Both the position numbers and the translations under genes were made by a program. 64,000 bases of DNA from contig JABVCE010000003.1 of assembly GCA_014905635.1 (NCBI GenBank), positions 558,001 through 622,000 on the forward strand, written 5' to 3'. The notes under the pieces are model-generated. The model had not been told where the DNA came from. It searched no databases and worked only from the letters and a program-made list of their open reading frames with translations. This DNA comes from Scenedesmus sp. PABB004 (Eukaryota). Positions 58 through 58,493 of this stretch are shown here, piece by piece (position 1 is the first letter of the stretch; each line of letters opens with the position of its first letter).

Positions 58-3000
58 CACGCGCGAGAAGCTCATGGAGCGGCGCAACCGGCTGATCGAG
101 GACATCCTGAAGCACGACCCCACCTACCACCCGCCCTCGGACTACAAGCCGCGCAAGCTCGTCAACAAGGCGCGTGCCCGCGGCACGCGCGCCGCCGCGC
201 CGCGCCTTGCCACGCACGCTCTGATGTGCCTTGCCTGATCTCCATCCCATCTGATCTAGCCTCATCTCATCTGATCTAGCCTCATCTAATCTCTCTGTCT
301 GTCACCGCCGGGCGCAGGTGTACATCCCGCTAAACGAGTACCCGGGCTACAACTTCATCGGCCTCATCATCGGCCCTCGCGGCAACACGCAGAAGCGCAT
401 GCAGCGCGAGACCAACTGCAAGATCGCGATCCGCGGCAAGGGCAGCGTCAAGGAGGGCGCGGGGCGCGACATGAAGTACGACTACGGCGAGGACGACGAG
501 CTGCACGTGCTCATCACCGCAGAGTGCCAGGAGGACGTGAGCGCGCCGCGCGCGGGCGGGAAGGGGCGGGGGCGGGCCGGGGCGGCTGCAGGCGGGCAGG
601 GCGCAGCTGCTGGCAGCGCGCGCCGCCGCGCGGGGGCCCGCCGCCGCGCCCCGCATCACCCGCCCCCGCCCTGCGTCGTCTCACCCGCGCCCGCGCGCCC
701 CCGCGCCCCCGCCCGCGCGCCGCGCCGGCGCAGCTGGACCGCGCGACGGCGATGATTGAGAAGCTCTGCACGCCCGAGGACGACGAGCACAACATGCACA
801 AGCAGCTGCAGCTCCGCGAGCTCGCCGCGCTCAACGGCACGCTCAAGGACATCTCCGCCTGCTACATCTGCGGCGAGCCCGGCCACGAGGCGGAGCACTG
901 CCCCAAGAAGGCGCGCGCCCGCGCCCGCCGCCGCCGCCGCGCCGCCGCGCCGCGCGCGCGCCCGCCACCTTGCGCCCGCGCCCGCCACCTCGCGCCCGCG
1001 CCACCTCGCGCCCGCGCCGCCGCGCCCGCGCCGCCGCGCCCACCACCTCGCACCCACCCCGTGTCGCACCGACCGCGCGTCGCGCCCGCTGCCGCTGCGT
1101 CGCGTCGCGCGCAGGCGGCGGACGTGTACAAGCTCCCCGAGCAGATGCTGACCAAGGTTCAGGAGCAGTACGAGCGCGACGTCGCGCGCGTGCACGGCGG
1201 CCCCGTCGTGAGCATGGACGCCGAGTACAAGTCCTTCCTCGCGGAGCTCGGCGGCGGCCCGCCCCCGGAGCTCATGGGCCTCGACCCGCTCACCGGTGCG
1301 CGCGCGTGTGGGGTGGGGGCGTGGGTGGGGGGTATGGGTGAGGAGGGCCAGGGCTTGGGCGCGGCGCTTGGGCCGACGCGGCCGCGTGCGCGGCGCGCCG
1401 CCGGCCCCGCCGCCGACCCCGCTGCCGCGCGCCCCGCCGCCGCGCGCCCCGCCGCCGCCGCAGGGCTGCCGCCCAAGACGGCGGGCGACCTGCCGGACGA
1501 GTGCAAGCTCTTTGTGAGCAACCTGCCGCCCGCGTACAACAGCGACATGCTGCGCCAGCTCTTTGAGCCCCACGCGCCCGTCGTGCACGCCGCGGTCATC
1601 ACCGAGCCCGGCAGCGGCGTGAGCCGGGGCTACGGCTTCATCCACATACCAGACGCGACCACGGTGCGGGCCCGCGCGCACGCGCAGGGCCCTGGCCGCC
1701 CCGCGCCGCGCGCCGCGCCGCGCCGCGCCGCGCCGCCCGCCGCGCCGCGCGCCGCGCCGCCCTCCGCGCGCCGCGCGGCCCGGCCTCGCCCGTGCGCCCG
1801 CCGACCCGCGCGCCGACCCGCCGACCCGCCCGCCCGCCCGCCTGCCCGGCTGCCGCCCCCGCGCTGCAGGCGCGCGCGACGCGGCAGCTGATGGACGGCA
1901 AGCTCATCGACGGCCGGCCGCTGGTGGTGCGGCTCAAGACCGAGCGCGGCATGCCCGGCGGCGGCGGCGGCCCGGGGCTCGGCCTCGGCCCGCCCGGCTT
2001 TGGCCTCGGCGGCCCGCCCGGCCCGCGGCCCGGGGAGATTGACGAGTGCAAGGTCTACGTCGCGGGCGTCAACTCGCAGGAGCAGGAGCCGGCGCTGCGC
2101 GAGCTCTTTGGCCGGTGCGGGCGCCGGCGGCCGGCGCGGCCCGCGCGCCTGCGCGCGCGCTGGCGGCCCGGGCCGGGCGCCGCCGCCGCGCCCGCGCCCG
2201 CACTTGCGCACCCACACGCCGACACACACGCACACCCAACACCCACACGCCCACGCGCCGCACACCCACACGCCGACACGCCCACACGCCCGCGCGCGCG
2301 CAGGTACGGCACGGTGACCGAGGTGCGCATCATCACCGACCGCGACACGGGGCTGTGCCGCGGCTTTGCGTTTGTGCACTACTCGGACAAGGCCGGCGCG
2401 CTCGCGGGCATCGCGGGCATGGACAACTACTGGCTCGACGGCAAGACCCTCGTCGTGCGCATCGCGGGTGCGCGCGCCGGCGGCGCGCGCCGCCGCGCCG
2501 GGCGGGGCGGGGAGGGGGGGGCGAGGGAGGGCACGGCCGCCGGGGGCGGCGCGCGGGAGGCGCGCGGCGGCGGCGGAGGTGCAGCCGCCCGACGCCCGCC
2601 CGCCCGCGCGTCGCCGCGCGTCGCCCGCGTGCCGCAGGCATGAAGGACCGGCCGCCCGGGCTGCCCTCCGTGGCGCCGCCGCCGCCGCAGCCGGGCGCGC
2701 CGCCGCCGGGCGCGCCGCCGTACGGCGCGCCGCCGCCGTACGGCGGCGGCTACGGCCCGCCGCCGGGGCTCTACGGCCCGCCGCCGCAGTACGGTGCGCC
2801 GCCGCGCGCCGCGCCGCGCCGCGCCAGCCGCCGCGCGGCACGGGCTGCACGGGCTGACGCGCGCCCGCGCTGCCGCCGCGGCCGCGCAGGCCGCCCGCCG
2901 CCGCCGTGGGGCGCGTACCCGCCGCCGATGCAGTACGGCGCGCCGCCGCCGTGGGGCGCGCCGCCGCCGTACGGCGCCCCGCAGCAGTACGGTGAGCGCG

Positions 3001-20578: not shown

Positions 20579-20619
<41 letters not shown>

Positions 20620-21677: not shown

Positions 21678-21845
21678 GCAACTGCTGTTGTTGTTGGTTA
21701 CACGGCGGGGCCCGGTACACTCCGGGCGGTTGAGCGTCCCACATCGGAACGCCTGGCGGGCCTGACCAACTCCCTCCCCGCCACCGCACGTGTCTGTGTC
21801 CTCCAAGTGCGACCAACCGAGCAACTGCTGTTGTTGTTGGTTACA
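21678..21845 (-). mobile_element. Short insertion (118 bp) between 25-bp perfect direct repeats; putative 5'-truncated non-LTR retroelement or SINE
   Basis: GCAACTGCTGTTGTTGTTGGTTACA at 21678-21702 and 21821-21845. The minus strand ends TGTAA-C(CAA)3. Contains copy 2 of the 62-bp repeat. Confidence 0.55.
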
Positions 21846-21993
21846 ACTGCAAGGCGTTGTTTGGGGAGTTTTCGGGAGTTTTCGGGATTTTTGGGAATTT
21901 GTTTGCATTATTTCGACCTTAAATAATGGAAGACATAAACTACGTTTGACATTGCGTGGTTATATTTGTTTGCTGTCAACTGTTTGCATCGTC

Positions 21994-22066
21994 GGGGACG
22001 TAGCTCAATTGGTAGAGCGCTCGCTTCGCATGCGAGAGGTCCGGGGTTCGATTCCCTGCGTCTCCA
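21994..22066 (+). tRNA. tRNA-Ala(CGC), intronless
   Basis: Acceptor GGGGACG/CGTCTCC with G3:U70, D arm TAGCTCAATTGGTAGAGC, anticodon arm CTCGC-TT-CGC-AT-GCGAG, T loop GTTCGATTC. AT-rich upstream region with TATA-like box at about 21961. Confidence 0.97.
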
Positions 22067-26618: not shown

Positions 26619-29617
<2,999 letters not shown>

Positions 29618-32671: not shown

Positions 32672-35600
32672 ATGGACGTCGCGGCCGTGGTGGCGCGCTT
32701 CCACCGCATCCTGCTGTCGTGGGACTACTTTGAGCTCTGCGACCGCGCGGAGCAGGGCAAGGGCGTCTACGACACGCTGCGCCGCGTGCCCAACACCTTC
32801 AGCAGCATCCAGGTGCAGGGCACGCGCACGCGCGGGCGCCGCCGCCGCTGCCGGCGCTTTGCGACCGCTGCCGCGGCGGCCGGCGCTCACCCCCGCGGCC
32901 GCCGGGCGGCGCAGGAGTACAAGGAGGTCTTTGAGCCGCTGCTGCTGGAGGAGGCGGGCGCGCAGGTGCTGCGGGGCATCGAGGAGGGCGTGGTGCTCGA
33001 GCCGCACGAGAGCGTCGTCGCGGCGTGCACCCAGGTCGGCGCGCAGCGGCGCGCGCGCAATCCGCACGCGAGCGCCTGCAGCGCGGGCGCGCCGCGCGCG
33101 CGGGGGTGGGGGGTGCTCAGGCCCAGCAGGCGCGCTGGCCGGCCGGTGCCGACCGCGCCCGACCGCCGCCGCGACACGCCGCGCCCCGCGCCCGCGCGCG
33201 CGCAGGCCTCCGACTTTCACGTCGCGCGCATCAGCGTCGCGCCCGAGGTCGCGCGGTCGCTCGTGGACAACGACCTGCTGCTGCTCTCCAAGGACCACCC
33301 GAGCGCGCCCGACTGCCGCCCCGCGCTCGCGGCCCTGGGGTTCATGGAGGGCCACGAGGGCGCGCAGAGCCTGCGCGTCAAGTTCTACCTCACGGATGAC
33401 AGCCAGGCGGGGCGGCGCGACCAGCTCGCGCGGTGCGCGCGCGGCGGGGCAGCGCCGCGGCGGCGGCGCGCGGCAGCGCACGCGGCGCGGCGGCGGCGCG
33501 CGGGGCAGGCGGCGCGCGCGGCGGCGCTGACGCGCGGGGCGCCCGCCGCGCCGGGTTGCCGCAGCGTCAAGGCGATGCGCGCGGGCATCGAGTCGCGCGA
33601 CAGCTGCTGGTGGCTGCTGCGCCTGTTCAACATGGCGACCATCACGCGCGAGTGGGTCGCGCTGCAGCACGCGCACCTCATGCCCTTCCGGGACACACTG
33701 CTGCACGGCCAGCCGATGCGGCGGCCGAGCATCAAGGCCATGGACATACCGCCCGGCATGCGCGAGGTGGTGGAGCAGGAGTGCAACGCCTCGCAGGCGC
33801 GCGCGCGGGAGCGCGCGCGGCCGCCGCCGCGCGCAGCGCACAGCGCACCGCACGCGCTCCGCGGCGCGCACGCCCGCCGCCAACGCTCGCGCCGCGCGCC
33901 GCGCGCCGCAGATGGCGGCGCTGCGCTCGGGGCTGGACGGCACGCCGCTCGTGCTGATCCAGGGCCCCCGGGCACCGGCAAGACGCGCACGATCCTCAAC
34001 CTGCTGTCCGTGGTCATGCACAGCGCGGCCAAGGGCAGCCTGGAGCTGGTGCCGCGCGCCGCGCCGGCGCGCGGCGCGGCAGCGGCGGCCGCGCCGTCCG
34101 CGGGGTCGTCGCCCGCGGCGGCCGCCGCGGCGGAGCGGCAGCGCGTGTGGCGGCTGCAGAGCCCCTGGATGTTTGGCGACGCCACGCCGCGCGAGCTGGT
34201 CGGGCCGACGAGCGAGACGGGTGCGCCAGCGCGCACGCGCGCGGCCGCCCCGCCCCGCCCGCCCGGCAGCGCGGCCAGTCGCCGCCGCGCCCGGGGCGCG
34301 CGGGCCTGCGTGCCTGCCGACTCGACCGGCCGCCCGGCCGCGCACACAGGCATGCCCACGCCGTCGGCCGACTGCTTCGGCCTGCTCGCCCGCGCCGCGC
34401 CCGTGGGCGTGGGCAAGGCGTCGGGCGCGCGCGCGCGCGTGCTCGTGTGCGCGCCGAGCAACGCCGCGCTGGACGAGGTGGTGCTGCGCATCCTGCAGCA
34501 CGGCCTGCTCGACGGCCGGGGGGAGCGGTACGAGCCCCGCCTGGTGCGCATCGGCGTCAACGTGCACCACAGCGTGCGCCACGTCAGCCTGGAGGCCCAG
34601 GTCGACGCGCGGCTCGGGCTGCCGCCCGGCGAGCGGGTGCGGCGGCGGCCCGCGGCGGGGCGCGCCGGCGGCAGCGGCGCGGGGCGCCTCACGCGCCGCT
34701 CCACCGCAGGGCGGGTCGGGGCTGCAGCGCGAGCGCGCCAAGGTGGCCATCCTGCAGGAGGCGGTCATCGTGGCCAGCACGCTCTCCTTTGCGGGTGCGG
34801 CGCGGCGGCCGGCCGCCGGCCCAGCGCGGCTGTGCTCGCCTGCGCGCCCACGCCCTTCGCCCTCCCCCTCGCGCGCGCACCCTCCCTCCCCCGCCGCGCC
34901 GCCGCCGCCGGCGGGTGGCGCGGCCAGGCTCTGCGCTGTTCCACCGCCTGTCGGTGCCGTTTGACGTCGTCATCGTCGACGAGGCGGCGCAGGCGGTCGA
35001 GCCGAGCGTCATGGTCCCGCTCGTCATGGGCTGCAAGCAGGCGCGGCGCGGCGCGGCGCCGGGCCAGGAGGCCCGCGGCGGCGCCCGCGCCCGCGGTGTG
35101 GCCGTCGCACCGGCGCGCTCCCCCTGTCCGCCCCGCCCTTGACGGGATCACCACCTCCACCCCCCCCCCCCCCCCCCCCCACACACACGCACCAGGTGTA
35201 CCTCGTCGGCGACCCGGTGCAGCTCCCCGCGACCGTGATCAGCGCGACCGCGCTGGAGCAGGGCTACGACGTCTCCCTCTTCAAGCGCCTCCAGGCGCGC
35301 CGCCACCCGCCCGCCCGCCACCCGCCCGCGCGCACGCCGCCCACGCCCGCGCGCGCGCGCCCCCGTGCGCTCTGCCCGCCCCACCACGCACGCCGGCGGC
35401 CGCACCCGCGCCCACACGCTCACGCCCGCCCGCCGCCCCACGCACGCACCCGCGCGCCGCGTCCGCGCCCGGCAGGCGGGCGGCTACCCGGTCAACGTGC
35501 TGGACACGCAGTACCGCATGCACCCCGCCATCAGCGCCTTCCCCAGCGCAGAGTTCTACGGCGGCCGCCTCACCGACGGCGAGGTGAGCGCGGCGGCGCG

Positions 35601-37365
35601 GCGCGCGGCGCGCGGGGGCGGGCGTGGGAGGGGGGGCGTGCGGGCGGGAGGGGGCGAGGCGCTGCGGGGCGCCACGGCCGCGCCCCGCTGCTGGCCGTGC
35701 CACCCTCGTCGCTCGCTTGCGCGTCGCCCGCGCCGTCCGCCAGGGCGTGCTGGCGCAGACGTCGCGGCCGTGGCACAGCCTGCGCTGCTTCGGGCCGTTT
35801 GCGCTGTACGACCTGCACGGCAAGGAGGACGTGCCCGAGGGCAGCGCGAGCATGCTCAACCGGTGCGGCCGCGCGGGGCTGGGCGGGGCTCGGCGGGGTG
35901 CGCGGGCCCGGCCGCCGCCGCCGCCGCCGCGCGCGCGCCCCATGCGGCCCGCCGCCGCCGCCGCGCGCGCGCCCCATGCGGCCCGCCGCCGCCGCCGCGC
36001 AGGCTTGAGGCGCAGTTTGTGGTGCTGCTGTACCGGGCCATGGCCGCACACGTGGAGGAGGTGCGGGACGGACGCACGAGCGTGGCGGTCATCTCACCCT
36101 ACAAGGCCCAGGCGCGGCGCGGGGCGGCGCAGTCAGCTGCGCGGCGCAGTCTGCTGCGCGTAGCTGCAGCGCGGCCCGCCCGCTCCGCGCAGCTGCAGCG
36201 CGGGCGGCCCGCCGGCGCCGCCGGCGCGCGCGTTGGCTGAGTCGCGCCGACGCGCCGCGCGCCGCGTGCCGCACGGGGCCGCGCCGCCGCAGGTGGCGCT
36301 GCTGCGCGACCTGTTTGAGTCGGCGCTGGGCGCCGAGGGCGCGCAGCGCGTTGACATAAACACCATCGACGGCTTCCAGGCGCGCCCCGGCGCCCCGCGC
36401 GCGGCGGCCCGCATGCCGGCAGGGGTGGCAGGGGCGCCACGCAGGCGGCCCTCCCCCGTCCGCTCACCCGCGAGCTCTGACGCGCCGCGCGCGCCGCCGC
36501 CGCCCGCCGGCCCGCGCTGCCCGCGCGCCCTGAACCCTGCCAGGGGCGGGAGAAGGACGTGGTGATCTTCAGCTGCGTGCGCACCGCGGGCGTGCGGGCG
36601 CGGTCGATCGGGTTTGTCGCCGACGAGCGGCGCATCAACGTCGGCATCACGCGCGCGCGCTGCGCCCTGCTCATCATCGGTGCGCGCGCCGCGCGGCGGC
36701 GGCGGCGCCGCGCTGCCCCCGGCGGCGGCGGCGTGCGAGAGCGCGCCCGAGGGCGCGGTGCCCGCGCCCGCAGGCCACGCCGCGAGCCTCGCCGTCGACG
36801 AGCGCTGGAAGAGCCTCGTGCGCTCCGCGGTGGAGCGGGACTGCGTGTACCAGCCGACCAAGCCCTATGCAGCCTACCTGGACCAGGTGCGCGCGCCTGC
36901 GGGCCGCAGCAGGCGCGCGGGGCGCGGCCGCCCGCCTCGCGCCGGCCGGCCACGCGCGCGCGCGGCGCCGCCCGGTCGGGCCCACCGCCCGCCGCCCTGC
37001 GCCGCGCGCAGCTCGCGTCGGGCGGCGCCGGCGCCGCCGCGGTGGGCGCCAAGCTGCGGTCCAAGCTCGGCATGCCGCGCCTGCCCACCGCCGACGGCGG
37101 CGGCGCGGACGAGTGGGTCGCGGCCGGCGCGGGCGCGCGCGCCGACCTGGGCGCCGAGCTCTACGACGTCGAGGCCGCGGCCGCTGAGGACGCGGCCGAC
37201 GCCGCCGCGGCGGCGGCGGCCGCGGCGGCGGCGGTGGCGTCCGAGGGCGGCGCCCGCGGCGGGCGGGGCGGCAAGGCCAAGGCGGAGCGGGGCGGCGCGG
37301 GCGCGGGCGGCGCGGCGGCCGCGCCCGCGCCGGCGCCGGCGAGCAAGCGGACCCGCAAGAAGTGA
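32672..37365 (+). CDS. SF1B Upf1-like RNA/DNA helicase, SEN1/MAGATAMA3-like; ~15 exons, one apparent 1-nt frameshift
   Basis: ILLSWDY, YKEVFEPLLLEE, LIQGP(P)GTGKT, VLVCAPSNAALDE, FDVVIVDEAAQAVE, LVGDPVQLPATV, SLFKRLQ, LDTQYRMHP, ISPYKAQV, INTIDGFQGREKD, RRINVGITRAR. Confidence 0.9.
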
Positions 37366-43398: not shown

Positions 43399-46300
43399 TC
43401 ACTGCGCCTTGGCGGCGCGGCCGTCGCCGCCGGCGGCGGCCTGCGGCGCGGCCTTGTCGCGCTTGGTCGGCAGCGGGACGATGTCGTTCGCGGGCGGCGG
43501 CTCCGCCCGGGCGGGCGCGCTCCGCCACGACGACGGCACGCCCGCGCCGCTGCCTTGGGGGGGCGCCGGTGCCGCCGCCGCCGCCGCCGCCGCCACGGCG
43601 GCCTCGTGCGCGTCGTGTGCGTCGTCGACCTCCTCGTCCATGCTGAGGCTGAAGGTCGCCAGGCTCGCGGCGGGACTGCCGGCGCCGCCTCCGGCGCCAG
43701 CGCCGCCGCCCGGCGCCGCGGCCGGCGGCGGCGCCGCTGTGGCCATGAGCAGCGAGCGCGGGCTGTCGCTGCTCGCCGCGGCGCTGCTCTCGACGACCGC
43801 GGCCATCGGCGAGCTGCCCCGCATGCTCATCCCGGTCACGGTGCTGTCCCTGTGTGACCGGCGGGGCGGGGCGGAGCCGCGGCTCGGCGCAGCCCTGCCC
43901 GCGTGGCGCGGCGGCGGCGGCGCAGCGAGCTCAGCGCACGCCGCACCTGCTCTGCAGCGGCCCGCCCTCGCCGTAGTCCCAGTCGCGGCTGCTGAGCATG
44001 GGCGGGTCGCGCTCGCGCGGCGAGAGGTCGCGGTCAGAGGGGCCGAGGCCCTTCTGCTGCCGCCGCACGAGGCCCCAGTAAATGCCCTGCGCTGCCAGCA
44101 GCTCCGCGTGGCTGCCCTGCTCGGCGACCTGGCGGCGCCGCGCCGCGGCAGCGGGGGTCGGCGGGCGCGGGTGTCGGCGCGCGCGGCAGGCGGCGCCCTC
44201 GACGGGCGCACGACGGCAGCGGGGAACGGGCCGCGCCCACGCTCGTCCCGGCGCACCTTGCCCTTGTCGAGCACCACGATGGTGTGCGCGTTGCGCACCG
44301 TGCTGAGGCGGTGAGCGATGACCAGGACCGTGCGCGCGCCCACGCCGCCCGCCTCGCTCGGCTGCATCGCCCGGTCCAGCGCCTGCGGTCGCACGTGGCG
44401 CGGCCGTCGGGCGCGCGAGCCGCGCCCGAGCCCCCCGGCGCCGCGCCCGAGCCCCGCGGCGCCGCGCGCGCCGCGCGCGCCGCCGCCGCGGGCGCGCCTG
44501 CTGCACCAGCGCCTCGCTCTCCGCGTCGAGCGCCGACGTGGCCTCGTCGAGGATGAGCAGCCCGGGGCGGCGCACGAGCGCGCGCGCGAGCGCGATGCGC
44601 TGGCGCTGCCCACCCGAGAGCAGCTTGTCGGTGACGAGCGTGTCGTAGCCCTGGGGCAGCGACGCGATGAACTCGTGCGCGTTGGCCGCGCGCGCCGCGT
44701 CCTCGACCTCCGCCTGGCTCGGGGCGAAGGGGCAGCCGTACGTGATGTTGTCGCGCACGCTCAGCCCAAAGAGCCGCGGCTCCTGGCTGACCACACCGAG
44801 GCGGCTGCGGTACCACGCCGCGTCGAGGTGGGTGAGGTCGGTGCCGTCGACCAGCACCTGGCCCTCTGCGCACGCGGCGGCGCCGGGCGCACGCGGCGGC
44901 GCCGGGCGGGCGCGGCGGCCGGGCACGGCGTGACGCGCGCGGCGAAGGCGCAGGCGGCGCCAGCCGGGGGCGGCGTGACGCGCGCGGCGAAGGCGCAGGC
45001 GGCGCCAGCCGGGCGGGCTGGCGCCGCGTCGTGCGGCGGCGAGCGCGCCGCCCGGGCGCCCGCCGTGGCGGCGCACCCGTGGGGTCGTAGAGGCGCTGCA
45101 GGAGCGCGACGAGCGTGCTCTTGCCGCTCCCGCTCAGCCCGACCAGCGCGACGAGCTTGCCGGGCTGGAGCCACAGGTCCACGCTCGCCAGCGCGGGCGT
45201 GTCGGGCCTGCGCGCGCGCGGGGCGAGGCGCGCCGGGGCGGGCGCTCGGGCGGCGGGCGCCGCCGCCGCTGCTTCTGCTGCGTCCGCTGCTGCTGCTGGC
45301 GCCGCCGGCTCACCGCGTGGGGTAGGTGTACGACACGCCGCGCAGCTCCAGCTCGCCCCGGAACACGCCGCCCGGCGGGACGATGCCGGGCGCGATCTGG
45401 GGCGCGGGCGGGTCGTTGAGGTGCTGCAGCACGCGCTCGCTCGCGCCGATGGCCTGCCGCGGCGGCGGGCGCGGGCGCCGGGTCAGCGGGCGTCAGCGGC
45501 CGCCGCCGCGCCTTGCGCCGCCGCCGCGCCGCGCCGCCGGCCCGCGCCGGCTGCACGCTGGGCTCACTTCCATCACCGCGCCGTACTGGTCGCACACGGC
45601 GAGGCTGGACGCGGTGACGAGCTGGACGTAGAACATGAAGCTGGTCAGCTGCTCCGCGCTGATGGCGCCCGCGTACACCATCCCGCCGCCGAGGAGCAGC
45701 GAGAGCGCGAGCGTCGCGTGGTGCGCGGTCGTGCCAGCGACGAGGTAGAGACCCCACGCCGCCGACTGGCGCATGCCCACCGAGTACAGCTTGCTGCGCG
45801 CGGCGCGGGCGCGGCGCGGCGCGCGCGGCGTGCGGGCGGGTGTGGGCGATGGCGGCGCTCACAGCGCCGCGGCGGCGACCGGTCGCCGGCCGCCGGCGCA
45901 GCACCCGTGCGCGGCCGGCCCCGTGCGCCGCAGCGTGTGCGTCGGCGCGCTGCTCACTCGAGCCAGCCCTTGTATCGGTCCTGCTCCTTCTGCTCGGTGC
46001 CAAACGTGCGCACGACGCGCAGCGCGCCGAGCGCCTCCTCCGCGCACGCGGTGCTGTTGGCGAGCACGTCCTGCACCACGCGCTGGCTGTGCCGGCTGTA
46101 GCTGCCGTAGAGCACGGTGAAGCCCCAGAGCACGCTGAAGATGGCCAGGCACAGCCCCGACAGCCGCGGCGACAGGCTGACCAGGATCGCGCCGCCGCCT
46201 GGGCGCACCGGGCGCGGTCGGCGCGGCGGTGAGGGCCGGCGGCGAGGGCCGGCGGCGAGGGCTGGCGGGCGCGGCGCGTGGCGCGGTGCGTGGCTGGGCC

Positions 46301-47290
46301 GGGCGTGAGCGCCTGCGAGGCGGCAGCGGCGGCAGCGGCGCGCACCGATGACCTGGACGAGGTTGCGCAGCGCGACGTTGACGTTGGTCGCGATGCAGCG
46401 CGTGATGGCGTAGCAGTCGCTCGTCAGCCGGCTCGTGAGCTGCCCCGGCTCCTGCAGGTCGTGGAACGACGCCGGCTCGCGCAGCAGCACGCCAAAGAGC
46501 CGGTACCTGCGGCGCGCCCGCGTCAGCCGCCTGTCGGTCAGCTTGCCGGCCGCCGGCGCGCGCCCCCGAGCACTCGCGCGCGGCCCCGTGCCGCGCCGCG
46601 CCTGAGCTGGCGGGAGAGCTTGTTGTTGATCACGCTGAACAGCGCGCCGCGGCCGGCCGCGAACGCGGCAAACCCGAGCGCGCAGGCGGCGTAGGCGGAC
46701 AGGTAGGAGTGGAAGAGGTCCTGCGGCACGGCCTTGGTCACGGCAAAGATGATCTTGCTGGTGTAGTAGGGGATCATGAGCTCACACAGCGACGCCGCGA
46801 TCTGGCGGCGCGCGGCGCGGCGGCGGCGGCGGCGGCGGCGGCGGGGCCGGCGCTCGGGGCGCGCGGCGCGCGAGCGCGTGTCGTGCGCGCCGCGGCCGGC
46901 GCGGGGTGCCGCAGCGCGCGCTGCGCTGCGGCCCGCGGGCTCGCGCACCATGAGCACCGCGGCCGCGGCGATGAGGCCGCGCTCGTGCGCGATGAGGCTC
47001 GCCGCCATCGCGACCGTGTCGGACAGCTTGCCCGTGTTTTTTTCGTTCTCCGCCGTCCCCACGTCCCACCACTCCGCCGCGCGCCGCCACCAGGGCCGCC
47101 GGGGCGCCGCCCCCGCGCCAGGCGCGGCGGCGGCGGCGGCCGCGGACGCGCGCGGCGCGAGCCAGGCCCGCCCCGGGCGCGGCGGCGGCGGCGCTGCCCG
47201 CGCGCCGAGCGGGCGCGGCGTCGCGCCCCGCCGCCGGGCGGCCGCCAGCGCCTGGCACCCTCCTCGCTGGGGGCACAGGGCAGCCGCCAT
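43399..47290 (-). CDS. ABC transporter B family half-transporter (TAP1/ABCB26-like) with probable plastid transit peptide
   Basis: TMD ([28 protein letters not shown]) and NBD ([53 protein letters not shown]). Confidence 0.92.
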
Positions 47291-49752: not shown

Positions 49753-52700
49753 ATGGAGGGGGAGGAGGACGACTACATCGCCTCCCTGGACTGGTGCGGC
49801 GCCGCGGCGAGCGCGGCGCGGCGCGCGGCGGCGCCCGCCGTTCACGCGGCGCGCCGCCCGCTGCCCGCGGCGTCGCAGGGAGGCGGTGGAGGCGCGCCTG
49901 CTGGCGCGGCGGGGTGCTCTTGCCTCCGAGCAGCCCGCGCCGCCGGCGCCGGCGCTGGCGGCGTTTGCGTTCGCGCCGGCCGGGGGGCAGCACACGCAGC
50001 AGCAGCGGCACCACGCAGGCGGCACCGCGCCGTGCGGCGGGCTCGGCGCGGTGTCGGCGGCAGACCTGCTGCGCGCGGCGCCGTCCGACGGCCGCGCGGT
50101 GGCCGGCGCAGCGGCGCCGGCGTGGCCAGCCGGGCCGTGCGGCCCGCAGCAGCGGCAGCAGCTCGGGCCGCTGCCGCCGTGGCAGCAGCAGCAGCAGCCA
50201 GCACAGGAGCCCTGGCCGCCGCCGCCGCCGCCGCCGTGGCAGCAGCAGCAGCAGCAGCAGCAGCATCAGCAGCAAATCCAGCAGCCTCTGCAGCCGCCGT
50301 GGCAGCAGCAGCGGCAGCAGCAGCAGGCACCGGCGTCAGTGCCGGCGCCGCCCCAGCAGCCGGCGCTGCAGGGCCCCCAGCTGGCGCAGCCGCCGCCGGC
50401 GGCGCCGCCGCCCGCGCAGCAGGCGCCGCCGGCCAAGCAGCCGGGGGCGGGCGCAGCCACGCTGCCGCGCTGCCCGTACAAGGCCTGCCCCGGCGTGTTT
50501 TCGGCCTGCGGCGCGGCGCTGCGCTGGCGGCAGCGCGGCGCCTCCGGCTACTACATCTGCGGCCAGGCGCCCAAGTGCGACTACAGGTGCGCGGCGGCGG
50601 CGGGCAGGCGGGCAGGAGGCGGCGTCGCGGGGCTCAGGGGCGCACCGCCCCTGCCGGACCGCTGCGCCCGGTCGCAGATACTTTCCGGTGCAGCAGATCA
50701 GCCGCCCCGAGCTGGGGTGCGAGGTGGTGGACGATGCGACGTTCCGGCTCGTGCCGCAAGCAGGTGCGCCGGCCGGGGGCGGCAGGCGGGGGCGGCAGGC
50801 CGGCCGCGCGCCGCGCGACCTGGTGCACGCCTGGCCGCGACGCGCCGCCCGCGGCCTGCCGCGCCGCGCGCAGCGTCCGAGGTGGCAGTGGTGCGTGCGG
50901 GTGGCATCCGCGCAGTGCTGGCGGCCGCGCGCATCTCGCTGGCGCACCTGGAGCTGCCCGAGCCAGGCGGCGACGGCGGCGGCGGCGGCGGCAACGGCGG
51001 CGCCGGCGAGGTGGCGGGCGGCAGCCAGGGAGGCGACGGCGACGCGGCGGCCGCCGCGGCCGCACCGCCTGCGCGCGCCGTCACCTCGGCCGCGGAGGAG
51101 CCGGCGCTGGCCGCCGCGCCCGACTGGTCGTGGCCGGCCGATCTGTGCATGCTGCTGCGGCTCTCAGACTATGAGCTGGTCGTGCAGCAGCTGCTGAGCG
51201 CCAAGCCCCACCCGCTGCTCGGCCGCGGCGGCGGCGTCTCGCAGGGCACGCTCGCGGCGTTTAGGTGGGCTGCCGCCCCGCGCTAGCGCGCGCCGCCGCC
51301 ACCGGCCGCGCGGCGCGCAGCGCGCAGCGCGCAGCGCGCGCCTCGCGGCGGGCGCGGCCCAGCCCGGCCGCCCCTCGCCGCCGCCGCCGCCGCCGCCGCG
51401 GCAGGGACCCGTGCCTGGGCCTCGCGCCGGAGGAGGAGGTGGAGCGGCGCTACGGCGCGATGCCCGCGTCGCTGCGGTCCGCGCTGATGCCGTTCCAGGC
51501 GGCGGGCGTGCGCTACGGGCTCGCGCGGCGGGGCCGCGTGCTGATCGCGGACGAGATGGGCGTGGGCAAGACGGTGCAGGCGCTCGCGCTGGCGGCGTGC
51601 TACCAGGTGCGCGGCCTGGCGCCCCGCCGGGGGCGCGCGCGCGGGCGCGCGGCCGCCGGCCGACGCGGCGCGCGCCGCGGCCGACGCCGCCGCGCGCGCC
51701 GCAGGACGAGTGGCCGCTGCTCGTGGTCGTGCCGGCGAGCCTGCGGCTGGTGTGGGCGGAGGAGGTGGAGCGCTGGCTGCCGCACGTGCGCCCGGGGGAC
51801 GTGACCGTGATTGAGGGCAAGGACGACCGCCTGTGCGACCTGCCCGACGTCGGCCGCCGCGCGACGCTGCCCGCCATCACGATCACCAGCTACGAGATGC
51901 TGAAGCGCCTCACCTGCACCTTCTGCCAGCGCCTGCCCGGCACGGGGCCGGGGACGGGGCCCGCGGCGGCGGCGGGCGCGGCGGCGGGCGCGGGCGGGGC
52001 GGCGGGCGCGGCGGCGGGCGCGGCGCGCCGGGCGGCGACGCGACCGGCGCCGCCGGCGAGCCGGGCGGCAGCATCGGCAGCGGCGGCGGCGCGCCGGCCA
52101 TCCCGCTCGCCAAGCGCGCGACCTGCTGCACCGGGCCGGGTGCGCGGCGCCCGGCGCTGCTCGCCCGGCCGGGCTCGCGCGGCACCGCCGCCGCCTTGCT
52201 CAGCCGCCGCACCACCGCGCCGCGTGGCTCGCAGACCACTGCATGGCGGCGCTGCCGTGGGGCGTGGTGGTGGTGGACGAGTCGCACAACCTGCGCACCA
52301 CCAACTCGCGCAGCGCCGACTCGCCGCACACCGAGGCGGCCATCGCCGCGGGCCGCGCCGCGCGGCGCCTCGTCCTGCTCACCGGCACGCCGAGCCTGTC
52401 GCGGCCGTATGACCTCTTTCGGCAGGTGCGCGGGCGCGCCGGGGGCTCCGCAAGGGCCGCGCGGCGCGGCGGTGGCGGGCCTGCGAAACCCGCCTCCCCG
52501 CGCCGCCAGGTGGACGTGCTGGCGCCGGGGCTGCTCGGCCGCAGCAAGGAGGAGTTTGCGCACAGGTACTGCGACCGGCGGCTGGTGCCGATGGTGACGT
52601 CGCGCGGCGGCGCGGAGGGCCGCATGCGCTGGGACAACGCGGGCGGCTGCCGCCTGGTGGAGCTGCACGGCCTGCTTGTGCGGCGCGTCATGATCCGGCG

Positions 52701-55700
52701 CCTCAAGCGTGACGTCATGGCCCAGCTGCCGCCCAAGCGCCGCCAGGTGCGCGGCGCGCGGGGCGAGGCCGTGCCCGCCCCCGCCCTGCTGCCGCCGCTG
52801 CCGACGCCGCCCCCGCCGCCGCCGCCGCCGCCGCCTGCCAGGTCGTGCGGCTGCCGTACCCGCCGGCGCACCGCTGGCCCAAGGAGCAGGATCCCGGCAG
52901 CCAGCAGGAGCAGGCGGGCGGGCCCGCCGGCGCCGCCGCGGCCAGCGCCGGCGCGGGCGGCGGCGGCGCGCCCGCCGCGCCCGGCGCCCCGCCCGGCCCG
53001 GCCGCGGGCGCCGGCCCTGGCGCGCCGGCGGCGGGGCGCTTCGACCCGGACGAGTTCCAGGCGGGCGTCATGTCGGCGGCGCACCGCACCGCGCTCGCCA
53101 AGCTCCCCGACGCGATCGACTGGCTCATGGCGGCCCTGGGGGCAGGCAGCGGCGGCGGCGGCGGGGGCGACGAGCACGCGCCCGCCGTGCAGGGCTGGGG
53201 CGGCGGCGGCGCCAGCGCCAGCGCGCGCGCGCCGCCGGGCCCGCTGCGCCCCGCGTGGCTGTCGTCCCGCGGCGCCGACACCGGCGGCAGCGGCGGCACC
53301 GGCGACGGCGACGGCGCGGGCGACGGCGCCGGCGACAGCTGCTCGGACGCCTGCGGCGCGGCCGAGGAGGAGGACGGCGCAGAGGCGCAGAGCGGCGGCG
53401 GCGGCGCTGGGGCCCCAAGTTTCTGGTCTTCGCCCACCACAGGTCCGCGGCAGTGGGGGGAGGGGAGGGGAGCGATGCGCCTGCGCGGCAGGCTCGCTCA
53501 CCGCGCCCGCGCCTGCCGCCGCCGCCGCGGCCGCCGCGGCCTGCCGCCCCGCGCAGGGACGTGATGGACAAGCTGGCCGCCGCGCTGTCCGGCTTCGGCA
53601 GCGCTGTGCCCGCCGCAGCGGCGGCGGGGGCCGACGCCGACGCGCCGGCCGAGCCCGGCGGCGGCGGCTCGGCGCGGCGCGCGGGCTGGCGCGGCGTGGG
53701 CTACGTGCGCGTGGACGGCAGCCACGACAGCCAGGAGCGCCTCGCCGCGGTGCGGCGCTTCAAGTCGGACCCGGGCGTGCGCGTGGCGCTGCTCTCCATC
53801 ACCGCCGCGGCCGTGGGTGCGTGGCCCCGGCGGCCGCGCGCGCCGCCGCGCGCCCTGTCGCGCCTCGCGCCCCCTCACGCGCGCCGCCCGCGCCCCCCGC
53901 CCCTGGGCCCCCGTCTCCGCGCAGGCCTCGACTTTTCGTCGGCGTCGATGGTCGTGTTTGTGGAGCTGCCGCTGGAGGTGTCGCTCGTGCGGCAGGCCGA
54001 GGACCGCGCGCACCGCAAGGGCCAGGCCGCCAAGGCGGTCAATGTCTACTTCCTCTGCGCCCAGGGCACGGTGGACGACAAGCGCTGGGCCGCGCTCAAC
54101 ACCAGCCTCGCGCACATCAGCCAGGTGCACGACGGCGCGGCGGAGACGCTGCCGCAGCCGCTCGCGCTCGCCGAGGCGGCGCTGGCGGGAGCGGAGGCGG
54201 CGCTGGCTGAGGCGGGCGACGACGAGGAGCAGCAGGCGCAGCAGGCAGAGCAGACAGAGCAGGCAGATCAGACAGGGCAGACAGAGCAGGCAGAGCAGGG
54301 AGAGCAGGCAGAGCAGCAGACAGAGCAGCAGGCAGAGCAGCAGGCGGAGCAGGGAGAGCAGACAGAGGATGCAGAGCAGCAAGTCCTGCCGCAGCCGGCC
54401 ACCGCGGCGTCGCCCGTTGCTGGCGCGTCAGGCCAGGGGCAGCAGGCCGCTGCCCTGCCGGCGGTGCCCGGCCCGGGCAGCAGCGCGGCGGCCAGCGCGC
54501 CAGACGTGCAGCAGCAGCAGCAGCAGCAGCAGCCGCAGCAGCAGCAGCTGCAAGGCGATGAGCTTCTCATCGACCTGACCGCTGAGTCGCCGCCACGGCC
54601 GCCCAGCGCCAAGCGCCCCCGCAGCGGCAGGGGCCCCGGCAGCCCGGCGAGCCCCCCAGCGCGGCAGCCGGCGCTGTCGACACCAGGCAGCAGGGTGGCG
54701 GCGGCCGGCGAGGGGCCCTCCGCTGGCAGCGGCAGCGCCCTGGCGCCCGCGTCCAACGCCGAGCCGGCCGCACCCGGTGCGCCGGCGCTGCCCGAGGTCT
54801 GGTTTGAGGTCAGCGGGCACACCGGCCGCCTCCACTTCCACCTCGCGCCCGACGGCTCGGCGCCGCTGGGCCTCAACCTGCCGCTCGACTGGTTCACGCT
54901 GCCCGAGGAGGGTACGCTGCTCGCGCTGGCGGCGGCATGGGAGCAGGCGTGGGCGGCGGCGGAGCGCGCGGAGGCGCAGGCTGCGCAGGCGCAGGCGGCG
55001 CAGGCTGCTGGCAAGGTCGCAGCTGCAGCGCCGTGCCAGCCGCAGCTGGCAGCCCTGCCGGCGCCAGAGCAGGACGCTCAGCAGGAAGCGGTCAATGAGC
55101 AGGCAGCTGGGGCCATGCCTGGTGCTGAGCAGCAGCGGCAGACGCCTGCGGAGCAGCAGCAGCCGCCCTTCATGCTCATCCAGCCGGCGCTGCTCTCGCC
55201 GGCGGCGCAGCCCACACCAGGCAGCGGGCCGCCCGCGCTGTCGCAGCCGGGGCAGGCGCCGGGCGCGCCCGGGACGGGCCCGCAGCGCAGCGCGGCGCGC
55301 GGGGGCAGCGCGGCGCGCGGCGAGGCCAAGTCGGTGCTCGACAGCCTCATGCTGCTGCCCTTTGCTGAGGGCGGCGGCACGCCGCCGGCGGAGGCCGAAG
55401 CAGCGGCGCCCGCGGAGCGTGGCGTCACCGCTGGCGGCGGGCCGTGCGGGAGCGCCGGTGGCAGCGGCGGCGACGCACGCCAGCAGGAGCAGGGGCAGCC
55501 GTCGCAGTACGGCGATGAGCCCGCCGGCAGCCCAGCCGCCGCTGGCGCGCCTGGCTCGGCGCCCGCGCTCGTCACCCACCTGCGGCGCCTGCTGCGACAG
55601 CACAGGGCGCCTGCCTCGCCGCCGTCGGCCGAGCAGGCGGCAGCGGAACAGCCACAGGGCTCGCCGCTGCCGCAGCTGCTGGGCGGCGCGCCCGAGCCGG

Positions 55701-58493
55701 CGCACGTGGGCGCCGACGCCGCAGACGTGCTGGTGATCGCGGCCACGCAGGACGCGGAGCAGCCGCATGCGGAGCTGCAGGCGGTGTCGCCGCCGCCGCC
55801 GTCGGGGCGCGCGCTGCCCGACTGCCGCGCGGCGCCGGGCTTCCTCGGCCCCACCGGCCTCGCCTGCCTCACGCTCGCGCTGCGGGGCCCGCAGCTGCTG
55901 GAGCTGCTGCGCATGGGCGCGGCGTTCGCCTCGGACTGGGGCGAGCTGCGCAGCGTCACGCGCAACCGGCTCGCGGGGCGCGTCGTGCCGCCCGACCTCG
56001 CCTCCGCGGTTGAGAGCGTGACGGCCGCGGCCGCGGGCGCGGGCGCGTTTGGCGTCGGCGTGACGCGATACCTGCGCGACGTGCAGGAGGGCGACGCCTG
56101 CCTGCCGCCGGGCGCGCGCCTCGTGCAGGCGCGACGGGGCCGTTGCGGGGGCGCGCCGCGCCGCGCGCCGCGCCGGCGCGGGGGCGAGGGCCCCTGCGCC
56201 GGCGCGCGCGACCCGCCGTGCCGGGCAGCCGCCGCCGGCGCGCAGCTGGCACCGGCCGCCGCCGCGCCTGAGCCCCGCGCCCGCCCCTCCCTCCCCGCCG
56301 CCTGCCCAGGTGTCGGTGCACTACCCCCAGGGGCGGGCCCAGGTGGCGACCTACCGTCAGGCCTTCACCGGCGCGCACACACGGCACTGCATCAACTGCT
56401 TCAAGCCGGTGGACGGCTGCAGCCTGCCCCCGGTGCGTGCGCGCTCGCAGGCAGGCAGGGGCGCGCCTGCGAGGCGGCCGCGGCCGGCGCGGCAGCGGCG
56501 GCGCCGGCGCGCGGCCGACCGCGTGCGCGCCGCGGGCCCCGCAGGACGCGGTGCTGCAGGGCGGGCTGGACCTGTTCTGCAGCCTTGACTGTGAGCGGCT
56601 GTACTACATGAAGAACAGCAGCAGTGAGCGGCAGCGGCGCACGCCGGCGCACGCCCCGCAGCGCGGCGCCGCGCCCCCCCCCCCCCCCCGGCGGCGGGGG
56701 CTGCGGCGCTCACCCCGCCCCGCCGCGCCGCGCCGCGGCGCCAGGCGGCATCCGGCGCGCGCTGTTCAAGCTGGAGCGCGGCGTGTGCCAGGCGTGCGGC
56801 CTCGACGCGCACCGGCTCGTGCGCGAGCTGCAGCAGGTCGCCAAGGACGGCCCGGGCTGGCTGCCGCACCGCCGCGCGGTCGTGGCCGCGCTCGCGCCGC
56901 GCTTCCTGCAGCGCGGCTGCGCGACGCTGCTGGACCGCCTGCTGGACCAGGTGGGCGGCCGGGGGCACGCGGGCGCGCGCCGTCGGGGGAGGCCGCCGGG
57001 GCGCGCAGCTCGTCTCGGCGCCCGCCGCCCGGGCGCTTGACCGCGTGTGGCCGCGCGGCGTGGCGCCGCGGCCAGGCGACCGAGGGCAACGCGTGGCACG
57101 CGGACCACATCCTCGCCGTGTACGAGGGCGGCGGCGGCTGCGACCTCGACAACCTGCGCACGCTGTGCACGCCGTGCCACGCCGAGGTGACCAAGCGCCA
57201 GGCCGCCGCGCGCGCCGCCGAGCGCGCGCGGCGCAAGCTCAACACGCACGACATCCGGCAGTGGTTTGGCGGCCTGCCCGGCGCGGCGGCGGCGCCGGCG
57301 CGGCCGGCGGCCCAGATGAAGCGCCGGCGCCGCGGCCAGGTGGAGGGCGGCGTGTGGATCGACGACCGGCTCACGCCCACGCCGGGCGCCAAGCAGCCGC
57401 TCAAGCGCACCGCCCCGCCCGCAGGCGGGGCCGGCGGCGGCAGCCAGGGCAGGGCGGGCCGGGGCATGGCCAAGCGCGGCGCCGCGGACGGCGGCGGCGG
57501 CGGCGGCAGCAAGCGGCCGCTGGAGGAGGCGTGGGCGGCCGCCGCCAGCAAGGCAGCCGCGGAGGCCGAGGCCGCGCCGGTCGGCGCCGGCGCGGCACCC
57601 GCCACGCCCAGCAAGCGCCAGCGCCGGCAGGCGGCGGGCGGCGGCGCTGCGACGCCGCCTGGCAGCCCCGACGCCGAGGTGGTCAGCCTCAGCCTCACGA
57701 CCAGCCCCTCCCAGGGCGGAGGCGACGCGGCGAGCCGGCCCGGCAGCCAGGGCCCGCCGCTGCTGCGACCGGCGTCGGCCGCCGCGCGGGCCGCCGGCGC
57801 GGCCGCGGCCGTGGCGGGGGCGGGCCGGCCGGCCGGGCGCCGCCGCAGGCCTGCGTAGCGTGCTGGCGCAGTTCAGCTTCGGCAGCCAGGGCAGCGAGCC
57901 CGCGCCGGCGCTGCAGCAGGCGCGGGCGCCGGCGCGGCAGGCGGCGCAGGGCACGCGCCCGCGCCAGGCGGGCGGGCGGCCGCGGCCGCAGGCGGCGCGC
58001 AAGCGGCGGCGCGCGCGCCGACGCCACGCTCAGCAGCAGCGACGACGAGGGGCCTGGCGGCGGCGCTGGCGACCTCGGCCGAGCCGCCGCGGGGCGCGCG
58101 GCTGCGGGGGCAACGCAGCCGGCTGCTGAGAGCGCAGCCGGCGCTGGCGGTGGCGCCGGGGCGCGGGGCGAGGGTGAGGGTGAGGCGGCCCTCCCCGACC
58201 TCAGCACCACCACCAGCAGCGGCGCCGCCGCGACCGGCGGCGGCGCCGACAGCGACGGCGGCTCGTGGCGCCGCGGCGCCGCGCCACGCCCGCGCAGCGC
58301 TCGGCGGGCGGTGGCGGCGGCGGAGCCCAAGGTGCTGCAGGAGCAGCCGGGCAACGCCGCCGGCGCGCGGGGGAGCGGCCGCGCCGCCGCCCCCAAGCCA
58401 CGAGGCGGCTGGGGCAGGGCCGACCGCGGCGGCGCGGCGGCGGCGCCGAAGGGCGGCGGGCGGGGCGCGCGCGGGAGCGCGGCGCAGGGTTGA
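49753..58493 (+). CDS. ZRANB3: ZRANB3/SMARCAL1-like SNF2 annealing helicase with C-terminal HNH endonuclease; several apparent frameshifts; strict stop at 57858, tail probably to 58493
   Basis: LMPFQ, LIADEMGVGKT, PASLR..W, VVVDESH, LLTGTP, MIRRLK..QLPPKRRQ, KFLVFAHH, YVRVDG, GLDFS, QAEDRAHRKGQ, ERGVCQAC, WHADHILAVYEGGG..NLRTLCTPCH. N-terminal Cys-rich finger. Confidence 0.9.
54226..54381 (+). repeat. Coding 9/12-nt tandem repeat (EQA/EQT/EQG/EQQ units) in the ZRANB3-like linker
   Basis: Repeated GAGCAG(G/A)CA units read directly. Confidence 0.8.

Follow-up and report, generated by a model that had tools for sequence, protein, structure and literature searches.

Layout of the SF1/BBP locus

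The first factor to contact the branch site is SF1/BBP, whose gene lies on the forward strand at the beginning of the window, i.e., the whole 64-kb stretch of Scenedesmus sp. PABB004 DNA analyzed here. The gene is identified by an SF1 helix-hairpin domain (Pfam PF16275, E 3.9e-07) followed by an intact BBP-type KH domain (PF22675, E 3.3e-19), whose exon has SF1 itself as its best match among solved structures (1k1g_A, E 1.1e-20) and also matches BBP (4wal_A). The predicted protein additionally carries a zf-CCHC zinc knuckle after QUA2 (E 0.0006; 20.2 bits, slightly below the curated cut-off of 20.8) and a plant-type C-terminal RRM (two RRM_1 matches in Pfam, E 3.1e-11 and 2.1e-10), as expected of an SF1/BBP gene. 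The relevant features are the following:

58..169, + strand: SF1 exon with the end of the helix-hairpin domain (PF16275), ending ...RKLVNK; tblastn matches of the transcript-derived homologues P0004 and P0005 stop at 169
170..317, + strand: GC-AG intron, phase 0, donor AAG/GCGCGT, acceptor CGCAG/G; consecutive residues of P0004/P0005 lie at 169 and 318, and the ad hoc HMM agrees
216..305, + strand: AT-richer, pyrimidine-rich block (GC 0.49; C+T 0.70) containing all eight motifs, by composition
221..255, + strand: the upstream motifs 221, 235 and 251, all CTGAT; by motif/AG geometry, an internal TAG offers them the first AG that is usable downstream
236..238, + strand: TGA, the first in-frame stop upon retention, read from the sequence
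243..292, + strand: tandem repeat, 20-nt unit x 2.5, exact copies 248-267/268-287 (TRF: period 20, 93% matches)
257..259, + strand: internal TAG; computed as acceptor, +58 nt and a stop after 4 codons
261..270, + strand: two CTCAT motifs (261, 266) that fit yUnAy, not CURAY; by motif/AG geometry, the first downstream AG is 278-279
271..290, + strand: distal motifs CTGAT 271, CTCAT 281 and CTAAT 286, by motif/AG geometry
277..279, + strand: internal TAG; computed as acceptor, +38 nt, a shifted frame and a stop in exon 2
290..303, + strand: pyrimidine tract right after the last branch-site motif, read from the sequence
318..536, + strand: KH-domain exon of SF1/BBP (PF22675; 1k1g_A)

The first-pass annotation had described a 148-nt intron directly before the KH exon, with GC at its 5' end and AG at its 3' end, and these boundaries hold: they are set by the transcript-derived homologues, which join K169 to V318 with zero gap, and the same intron is predicted by an ad hoc gene-model HMM. 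Excision of 170-317 restores the conserved protein, whereas reading through it meets four in-frame stops, the first being the TGA that had been proposed as the outcome of retention. The sole AGs inside the intron are those of the two TAGs, and the expectation that their use as acceptors would end in a stop or a frameshift is borne out by computation, both products being prematurely terminated.

The HMM also supplied the introns used for comparison. It was trained on SF1 itself and on CAG acceptors and was applied in its version with a minimum intron length at iteration 0, iterations 1 and 2 having over-called introns in the proline-rich tail; removal of the 15 introns with a flanking exon shorter than 45 nt from 109 internal predictions left 94. 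GC donors are present in 24 of these 94 predicted introns (three were checked at the protein level), and because they are so common, the earlier suggestion that a weak GC donor makes the SF1 intron tunable fails. TAG acceptors, as counted with this CAG-trained model, are found in 0/94. A predicted hairpin spanning the 5' splice site (166-209) was dropped as a special feature, as 32/94 predicted donors fold more strongly locally, and the predicted fold of the whole intron is likewise unexceptional (z -1.92; 6/200 shuffles equally good).

The branch-site motif array and its geometry

The 3' half of the intron is occupied by the block 216-305 (49% GC, 70% pyrimidine), in which CT[GCA]AT occurs at 221, 235, 251, 261, 266, 271, 281 and 286 (CTGAT four times, CTCAT three times, CTAAT once), a density of 8 motifs per 70 nt. 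Five of them fit CURAY (221, 235, 251, 271, 286), the other three being CTCAT, and every motif except that at 235 lies on a 5-nt grid. The repeat within the block has a unit of 45% GC and is underlain by a decayed period-5 ATCTC pattern (238-293); the 20-nt duplication on top of it is young, because its two copies are exact, and the 20-mer has no second locus in the 64-kb window and no exact match in viral contigs. The flanks outside the duplication (219-247, 288-305) are likewise AT-richer and motif-bearing. Thus, the eight motifs, their grid and the perfect duplication all stand as first annotated.

The same annotation had called the block unlike any other intron read in the window, which is confirmed against the ad hoc predicted introns. 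CT[ACG]AT is found 8 times in the SF1 intron and in none of the 93 others, while CURAY occurs 5 times here against a maximum of 2 elsewhere, with 82/93 other predicted introns lacking it altogether. These 93 introns have a median GC of 0.89; the SF1 intron has the lowest 40-nt GC among the 94 (0.425; runner-up 0.55) and the maximal T content in its last 60 nt (0.28). Across both strands of the 64-kb window CT[GCA]AT totals 93, and no other 70-nt stretch holds at least 4. When the block is shuffled with its dinucleotides preserved, 2.5 motifs are obtained on average against the 8 observed (0/2000 reach 8), and with one 20-nt copy removed, 1.65 are expected and 5 observed (8/2000 shuffles). The array is not due to chance.

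CCGAC-type motifs, too, are more frequent in the introns of this gene (6/7 other SF1 introns versus 32/86 introns elsewhere), at a density equalled by one other gene. Microsatellites containing AT occur in other introns as well, namely (GT)19 at 20581-20619 and (TG)11 at 27414-27435.

The position of the motifs relative to the AGs divides the array. At the distal motifs 271, 281 and 286 the branch A would lie 43, 33 and 28 nt before the acceptor, respectively, with no usable AG between, the AG at 278-279 being merely 5 nt from the branch A of the 271 motif. Downstream of CTCAT 281 and CTAAT 286 (the sole CTAAT in the window) no AG precedes 316, and these two are the motifs that have the placement of a functional branch site, i.e., yUnAy or CURAY at an AG-free distance of 18-40 nt from the acceptor. 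Under a first-AG rule, the productive acceptor is reached from the last two or three motifs alone. In this respect the intron resembles others with several candidate branch sites before one acceptor, in which the intervening AGs set the outcome; it differs from them in its density and in its contrast with a genome whose introns mostly have none.

A candidate self-regulatory element and its alternatives

The block is best explained as the part of a genuine GC-AG intron that supplies its branch site and pyrimidine tract, and in which slippage multiplied the motif that SF1 recognizes. With roughly 89% GC in the other introns and canonical branch sites missing from most of them, SF1 and U2AF should find by far their best binding substrate in the SF1 intron. 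In plants, the tracts to which SF1 crosslinks are U-rich and have CURAY at a distance of 10-25 nt (PMC12746065). We tentatively propose an SF1-responsive self-regulation through the array, a candidate and not a demonstrated switch. The array most likely couples the level of SF1 to the fate of its own pre-mRNA, with a confidence that falls just short of even. Specifically, the tract 290-303 and the distal motifs at 271, 281 and 286 (two or all three of them) would direct productive splicing to 317, whereas SF1 bound to the five upstream copies would shift branch choice to the internal TAGs or stall the intron. Either event would give stop-containing or nuclear-retained RNA, and thereby negative feedback; the scheme presumes that SF1 binds, that the outcome follows its dose, that the feedback is negative and that the unproductive forms decay.

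In favor of this proposal, the array is singular, stays enriched with one repeat copy removed, sits in the SF1 gene and allows access to 317 from its distal end alone, the remaining SF1 introns are comparatively rich in CCGAC-type motifs, and arrays occur in SF1 loci of other lineages (see below). Several points weigh against it: the element is not conserved, slippage is ordinary in this genome, 3/8 motifs are CUCAU, TAG acceptors number 0/94, the duplication is young, the intron set derives from an SF1-trained model, one other gene matches SF1 in CCGAC density, and the arrays of other lineages are CTAAC-type and located elsewhere in the transcript.

A neutral origin has to be considered seriously, and we hold it to be a real possibility, if somewhat less than evenly probable. 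Here the array would be the by-product of a decayed CATCT-type pentanucleotide microsatellite, which yields CTNAT motifs through its sequence alone, and of a recent 20-nt slippage event, the distal copy and the tract would form a constitutive branch region, and the extra copies would be idle, leaving the level of SF1 unsensed. Indeed, tandem repeats make up at least 20% of the sequence in 83/94 predicted introns (median 59%), TRF reports 808 rows in the window, the (GT)19 and (TG)11 tracts show that AT-containing microsatellites arise in other introns, and the exactness of the duplication marks it as recent. The SF1 repeat thus shares the slippage process of the ordinary intronic repeats, but nearly all of these have GC-rich units (18/808 rows have a unit of at most 60% GC), and it is the sole ATCTC type. 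CATCT-type satellites in unrelated introns, which would have spoken against the first-pass proposal if common, are found in 0/93 within the window.

The lack of conservation also favors a neutral origin. The intron site is read straight through, without an intron, in 78/80 related loci, and P0002, the nearest genomic relative, has none there either. L001 and six database ORFs do have an intron at this position; that of L001, the one orthologous intron found among the loci, has no array and holds 2 motifs against 1.1 expected, and no internal repeat shows in P0027, in which a further orthologous intron is read through in translation. The enrichment in orthologous introns that the first-pass annotation had looked to is therefore absent from the sole intron in which it could be sought, most relatives being intronless, and this counts against the proposal as far as these loci reach.

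On the other hand, neutrality needs a coincidence, because the sole motif-bearing intron of 94 sits in the gene whose product binds the motif. Additionally, the non-duplicated flanks share the composition and the motifs of the repeat, and the enrichment persists once the duplication is collapsed. Moreover, SF1/BBP loci from other lineages carry same-motif arrays far more often than shuffles would give. At least 5 CURAY per 100 nt are found on the sense strand, within intronic or UTR segments of the SF1 transcript, in 7/80 loci, whereas the antisense strand gives 1 and the shuffle expectation is 0.25, and CURAY is joint top among 120 permuted patterns; each locus comprised only SF1 plus about 2 kb per side. 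Two further clusters were rejected as arrays, one of 4 motifs in L005 that is partly exonic and one in L008 that lies within coding sequence. The arrays that qualified are CTAAC-type and occupy other parts of the transcript than the algal array.

It is improbable that the block serves another function, be it as a landing site for some other pyrimidine-binding protein, as an intronic enhancer compensating the GC donor or as an intron-encoded small RNA, for example of the box C/D snoRNA type. AT-richer islands within GC-rich introns are frequent marks of embedded functional RNAs, the block has a UGAUGU and several CUGA, and its CU-rich runs resemble PTB-type sites. However, a search of Rfam to E 10 returns within the block only a 19-nt match to archaeal sR42 (E 4.3) and nothing at gathering score, and over the whole 64-kb window a tRNA only. 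A terminal stem around the C/D-like boxes was not seen on reading, their spacing is too short, and the fold of the intron, as noted, is unexceptional. The block is also unneeded as compensation for the GC donor, because 23 other GC-donor introns lack one. Finally, that 170-317 is no intron at all (but an assembly error, for instance, or coding sequence in alternative use) is extremely improbable in view of its four in-frame stops, the gapless K169-V318 junction in transcript-derived homologues and the same-site introns of L001 and six database ORFs.

Own-motif arrays and the proposed control of SF1 level

If the array does act as a self-regulatory element, it would join a known class. SR proteins, PTB and hnRNPs are subject to autoregulatory unproductive splicing via clusters of their own motifs.

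Another example is the RNA-binding protein AtGRP8, for which autoregulatory unproductive splicing is described (PMC2602770). As in these systems, a cluster of the protein's own motif lies in its own pre-mRNA, and retention or the use of alternative sites leads to premature stops. Unlike them, SF1 belongs to the core branch-site factors and is no classical regulator, branch sites instead of silencers or enhancers would serve as the decoys, and the algal element, whose unproductive isoforms and dose response are predicted ones, is not conserved.

The lncRNA Gomafu/MIAT offers a different parallel, as it carries tandem UACUAAC repeats that associate with SF1 (PMC3116199). Both RNAs bear tandem branch-site motifs proposed to hold SF1, but those of Gomafu are exact UACUAAC and exonic, in a noncoding RNA of mammals, whereas here CUGAU, CUCAU and CUAAU lie in an intron of SF1's own gene. 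Correspondingly, CTAAC is absent from both strands of the window.

A broader generalization is possible, though somewhat less than evenly probable: genes for branch-site-binding proteins in distant eukaryotes (fungi, lineages known from metagenome contigs and this extreme-GC alga) may have independently gained arrays of their own motif in transcript introns and UTRs, which would gauge free recognition capacity. In the alga, where canonical branch sites would have vanished from almost every other intron, the sole canonical cluster would then act as a decoy-branch-point switch through which excess SF1 yields stop-containing or retained RNA. The literature searched, by exact phrase and more broadly, holds nothing direct on how cells set the level of SF1/BBP, on autoregulation of SF1/BBP/Msl5 or on decoy branch sites; one candidate source (10.1101/464404) has SF1 in its reference list only.

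If true, the self-regulation proposed here would extend the own-motif feedback design to a core factor of spliceosome assembly, and its mechanism would be branch-point competition, unlike the usual binding of silencers or enhancers. Because its introns are about 89% GC and largely without canonical branch sites, this genome is a natural test of what SF1 still recognizes, and the SF1 intron can serve directly as the positive control when binding is assayed or lariats are mapped. Even if the array is neutral, the locus documents introns of an extreme kind, about a quarter of them GC-AG, with degenerate branch sites and, in most of them, abundant repeats.

The SF1/BBP gene and its GC donors

The gene inside which the window begins lies on the plus strand and encodes SF1/BBP, the branch-site binding protein. 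Searches against Pfam, exon by exon, place its domains as follows:

59-169 (+), end part of the SF1 helix-hairpin domain
318-536 (+), BBP-type KH domain
734-910 (+), CCHC knuckle
1466-1663 and 2305-2466 (+), two RRMs, after the zinc knuckle

Among solved structures, the KH exon matches human SF1 best (1k1g_A, E 1.1e-20), with yeast BBP next. The nearest database proteins are chlorophyte SF1s (up to 86% identity for those encoded on contigs, 84% in Monoraphidium, 81% in Chlorella), and none on record is identical to the SF1 of the window. Two transcript-derived homologues (P0004 and P0005), which include the first of the two RRMs, have residues that run consecutively over 169/318 and over 910/1115 when aligned to the window; thus, introns occupy 170-317 and 911-1114, each starting with GC.

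To place these introns among others in the window, where GC content is ~79% throughout, a gene finder was written whose first training set comprised the SF1 exons and six SF1 introns, the array intron being left out. It called 17 genes, and Pfam recognises 35 of the 99 predicted non-SF1 exons, often with profile coordinates contiguous over predicted junctions. The sample consists of the 94 of 109 internal predicted introns whose flanking exons are both at least 45 nt (the array intron and 93 others), and every count over it rests on our own model predictions. GC donors open 24 of the 94 (consensus GCGCG[CG]), a figure from our own model in DNA of 80% GC, where false GC donors are easily called. 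Three were checked at the protein level, namely 170-317 and 911-1114 (+, SF1) and 26769-26895 (-), the last of which has no GT within reach. The first-pass annotation regarded the donor of intron 170-317 as weak and hence tunable; this argument fails, because GC donors are common and AAG/GCGCGT retains G at +5 and T at +6. None of the other 23 predicted GC donors reads GCGCGT. At 174-175, 4 nt past the GC donor, there is a GT (GTGCCC, near the common GTGCGC), and joining it to 317 would shift the frame. A hairpin predicted over the donor is ordinary too, since 32 of the 94 predicted donors fold more strongly.

Elsewhere in the window are a helicase of the UPF1/SEN1 kind (AAA_11/AAA_12; 32672-37362, +), SNF2-domain exons with an HNH-domain exon after them (51149-57855, +) and a tRNA gene (21994-22066, +; Rfam, 70.4 bits) within the lowest-GC stretch (21783-22037, down to 28% GC). 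Other neighbours encode Bax-inhibitor-like, Snf7, methyltransferase, molybdopterin oxidoreductase, FAE1-type condensing enzyme, pyridine-nucleotide disulphide oxidoreductase, ABC transporter, Mpv17/PMP22 and protein kinase products.

A motif array in intron 170-317

Intron 170-317 contains eight CT[GCA]AT motifs (221, 235, 251, 261, 266, 271, 281 and 286), five of them CURAY, the canonical branch-site motif, and three CTCAT, within a block (216-305) that is 49% GC and 70% pyrimidine. The block includes an exact 20-nt duplication (248-267 = 268-287), and TRF reports a 20-nt unit repeated 2.5 times at 243-292 (93% matches) above a decayed 5-nt ATCTC periodicity. All coordinates previously assigned to features of this intron agreed with the sequence on re-reading, as did the expected consequences of misprocessing: retention runs into a TGA at 236-238, whereas by computation an acceptor at 259 would add 58 nt and meet a stop four codons on, and one at 279 would add 38 nt and meet a stop in exon 2. 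The intron holds three AGs, two in TAGs of the repeat unit and one at the acceptor (316-317); under a first-AG rule, 317 is reached only from the motifs at 271, 281 and 286, the five upstream motifs meeting a TAG earlier. At 283-303, a putative branch site of the UCUAAU type is directly followed by a CU-rich tract, with the branch A 28 nt from the acceptor, the sole textbook 3' region in the intron sample. Because there is no better candidate between 290 and 317, the block very probably supplies at least the branch site and pyrimidine tract of this intron.

This clustering exceeds chance. The window holds 93 CT[GCA]AT motifs on both strands, with at least four in 70 nt nowhere outside the array; CTAAT occurs once (286) and CTAAC not at all. 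Dinucleotide shuffles of the block yield a mean of 2.5 motifs against the 8 observed, a number reached in 0 of 2000, and with one repeat copy removed 1.65 are expected against 5 observed (reached in 8 of 2000). The claim that the intron is unlike any other holds within the window, across the 94 predicted introns: it has the lowest overall GC (0.65; median 0.89) and the lowest 40-nt minimum (0.425; next 0.55), its last 60 nt are the richest in T (0.28), and it carries 8 CT[GCA]AT, where the 93 others have 0 each, and 5 CURAY, where the others have no more than 2 (none in 82 of 93).

The branch sites of the other introns look highly degenerate: their branch zone (last 60 nt) contains CURAY in 7 of 93 and CYRAY in 28, and the words enriched there are CCGAC, CTGAC and CTCAC. 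CCGAC-type motifs occur in six of the seven other SF1 introns vs 32 of 86 introns elsewhere (8.2 vs 3.5 per kb), a density equalled by the ABC-transporter gene (43934-47008). In SF1 introns such as 1664-1869 and 2115-2303 they are often multiplied by repeats, e.g., three CCGAC at -69, -57 and -49. Tandem repeats (period at least 4) make up at least 20% of the sequence in 83 of the 94 introns of the sample, with a median coverage of 59%; for the whole window, which has 808 TRF rows, coverage is 26%. Slippage is thus usual among introns here, and (GT)n or (TG)n runs occur in two other introns.

The intron site and SF1/BBP loci of other lineages

The sample of relatives consists of the 80 top-ranking metagenome loci that encode the KH exon, and 78 of them read straight through the K/V junction in frame, with the conserved basic residues abutting. 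One (L001) has an intron at exactly the same site, 285 nt long with a GT donor and without an array (2 motifs vs 1.1 expected), so the enrichment in orthologous introns that the first-pass annotation proposed to look for did not emerge there; in another (L035), an intron four codons downstream has no motifs of the array type. Of 31 proteins taken from the database, 21 continue across the junction without a break, including P0002 (from a 212-kb contig), whose translation clearly enters flanking introns, and six begin inside an intron at the same site. Read-through in most relatives together with same-site introns in a few points to an intron position that is old but often lost. One of these six, the P0027 ORF from another alga, reads the whole orthologous intron in frame, with no internal repeat and with Ala as first codon, i.e., a GC start, a hint of a possibly old GC donor here. 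Nothing among the relatives compared suggests that green algae conserve an array; the relatives are all distant (at most 86% identity in a very conserved exon) and therefore provide no test of a lineage-specific element.

Beyond the orthologous site, at least five CURAY within 100 nt occur on the sense strand in 7 of the 80 loci; the antisense strand gives 1, and local shuffles predict 0.25. These counts come from SF1/BBP loci alone. Permuting the five positions of the pattern gives 120 patterns with a mean of 1.14 loci; 2 of the 120 reach 7, and CURAY, with 7 loci, shares the top rank. As read from the sequence, the SF1 transcript carries these arrays outside its coding parts:

L020, 56-150, 5' UTR intron just ahead of the ATG
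L026, 1700-1770, immediately past the stop codon
L048, 1039-1120, immediately past the stop codon
L055, 1855-2105, farther downstream
L071, farther downstream
L077, 828-918, and L078, 752-800, one array common to both, N-terminal intron

Dense CTAAC/CTGAC makes up the arrays of L020, L026, L048, L055, L077 and L078. Additionally, at least two motifs, ahead of the KH exon and in matching positions, are shared by eight fungal-like loci, and the chlorophyte-like loci L001-L010 have no array outside coding sequence.

A candidate SF1-responsive element

Yeast BBP has a role in the nuclear retention of unspliced RNA. Plant SF1 crosslinks at U-rich tracts that have CURAY at a distance of 10-25 nt, a pattern that the layout of the block fits (PMC12746065). 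SF1 and QKI compete for ACUAA branch sites, which shows that regulation can act through branch-site occupancy (PMC11483029). The array is similar in design to the UACUAAC repeats of Gomafu, which associate with SF1 (PMC3116199), and the scheme proposed for it resembles AtGRP8, which exerts feedback through its own motif by unproductive splicing (PMC2602770). Exact-phrase and broader literature searches, supplements aside, returned no paper on self-regulation of SF1.

The array was originally proposed to be a decoy for autoregulation by SF1. That it is an SF1-responsive element is a reading to which we give close to, if below, an even chance. Dense canonical sites would make intron 170-317 a preferred SF1 target; SF1 on the upstream copies would divert or stall branch selection, and the intron would then be retained, with a stop at 236, or spliced to the acceptors at 259 or 279, with premature stops. 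Such negative feedback and a positive variant, in which the intron would enjoy privileged splicing when SF1 is scarce, look alike from sequence alone. A neutral microsatellite with a duplication, working merely as a constitutive branch region, is the main rival, which we rate only a little lower: the duplication is young, repeats are ubiquitous in the window's introns and the array is not conserved, but this origin needs a coincidence of motif and gene. A different pyrimidine-binding protein or an embedded small RNA is improbable, and for the latter Rfam finds nothing in the block.

Set against the class of autoregulatory unproductive-splicing elements, the array shows a cluster of the protein's own motif and lacks conservation; it is a candidate member. 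The array is a real sequence feature, singular within the window and in a meaningful place, whose origin by slippage is ordinary; it is a candidate, not yet to be called a switch, and the pattern across lineages increases the prior probability of a tendency of SF1 genes to hold many copies of their own motif.
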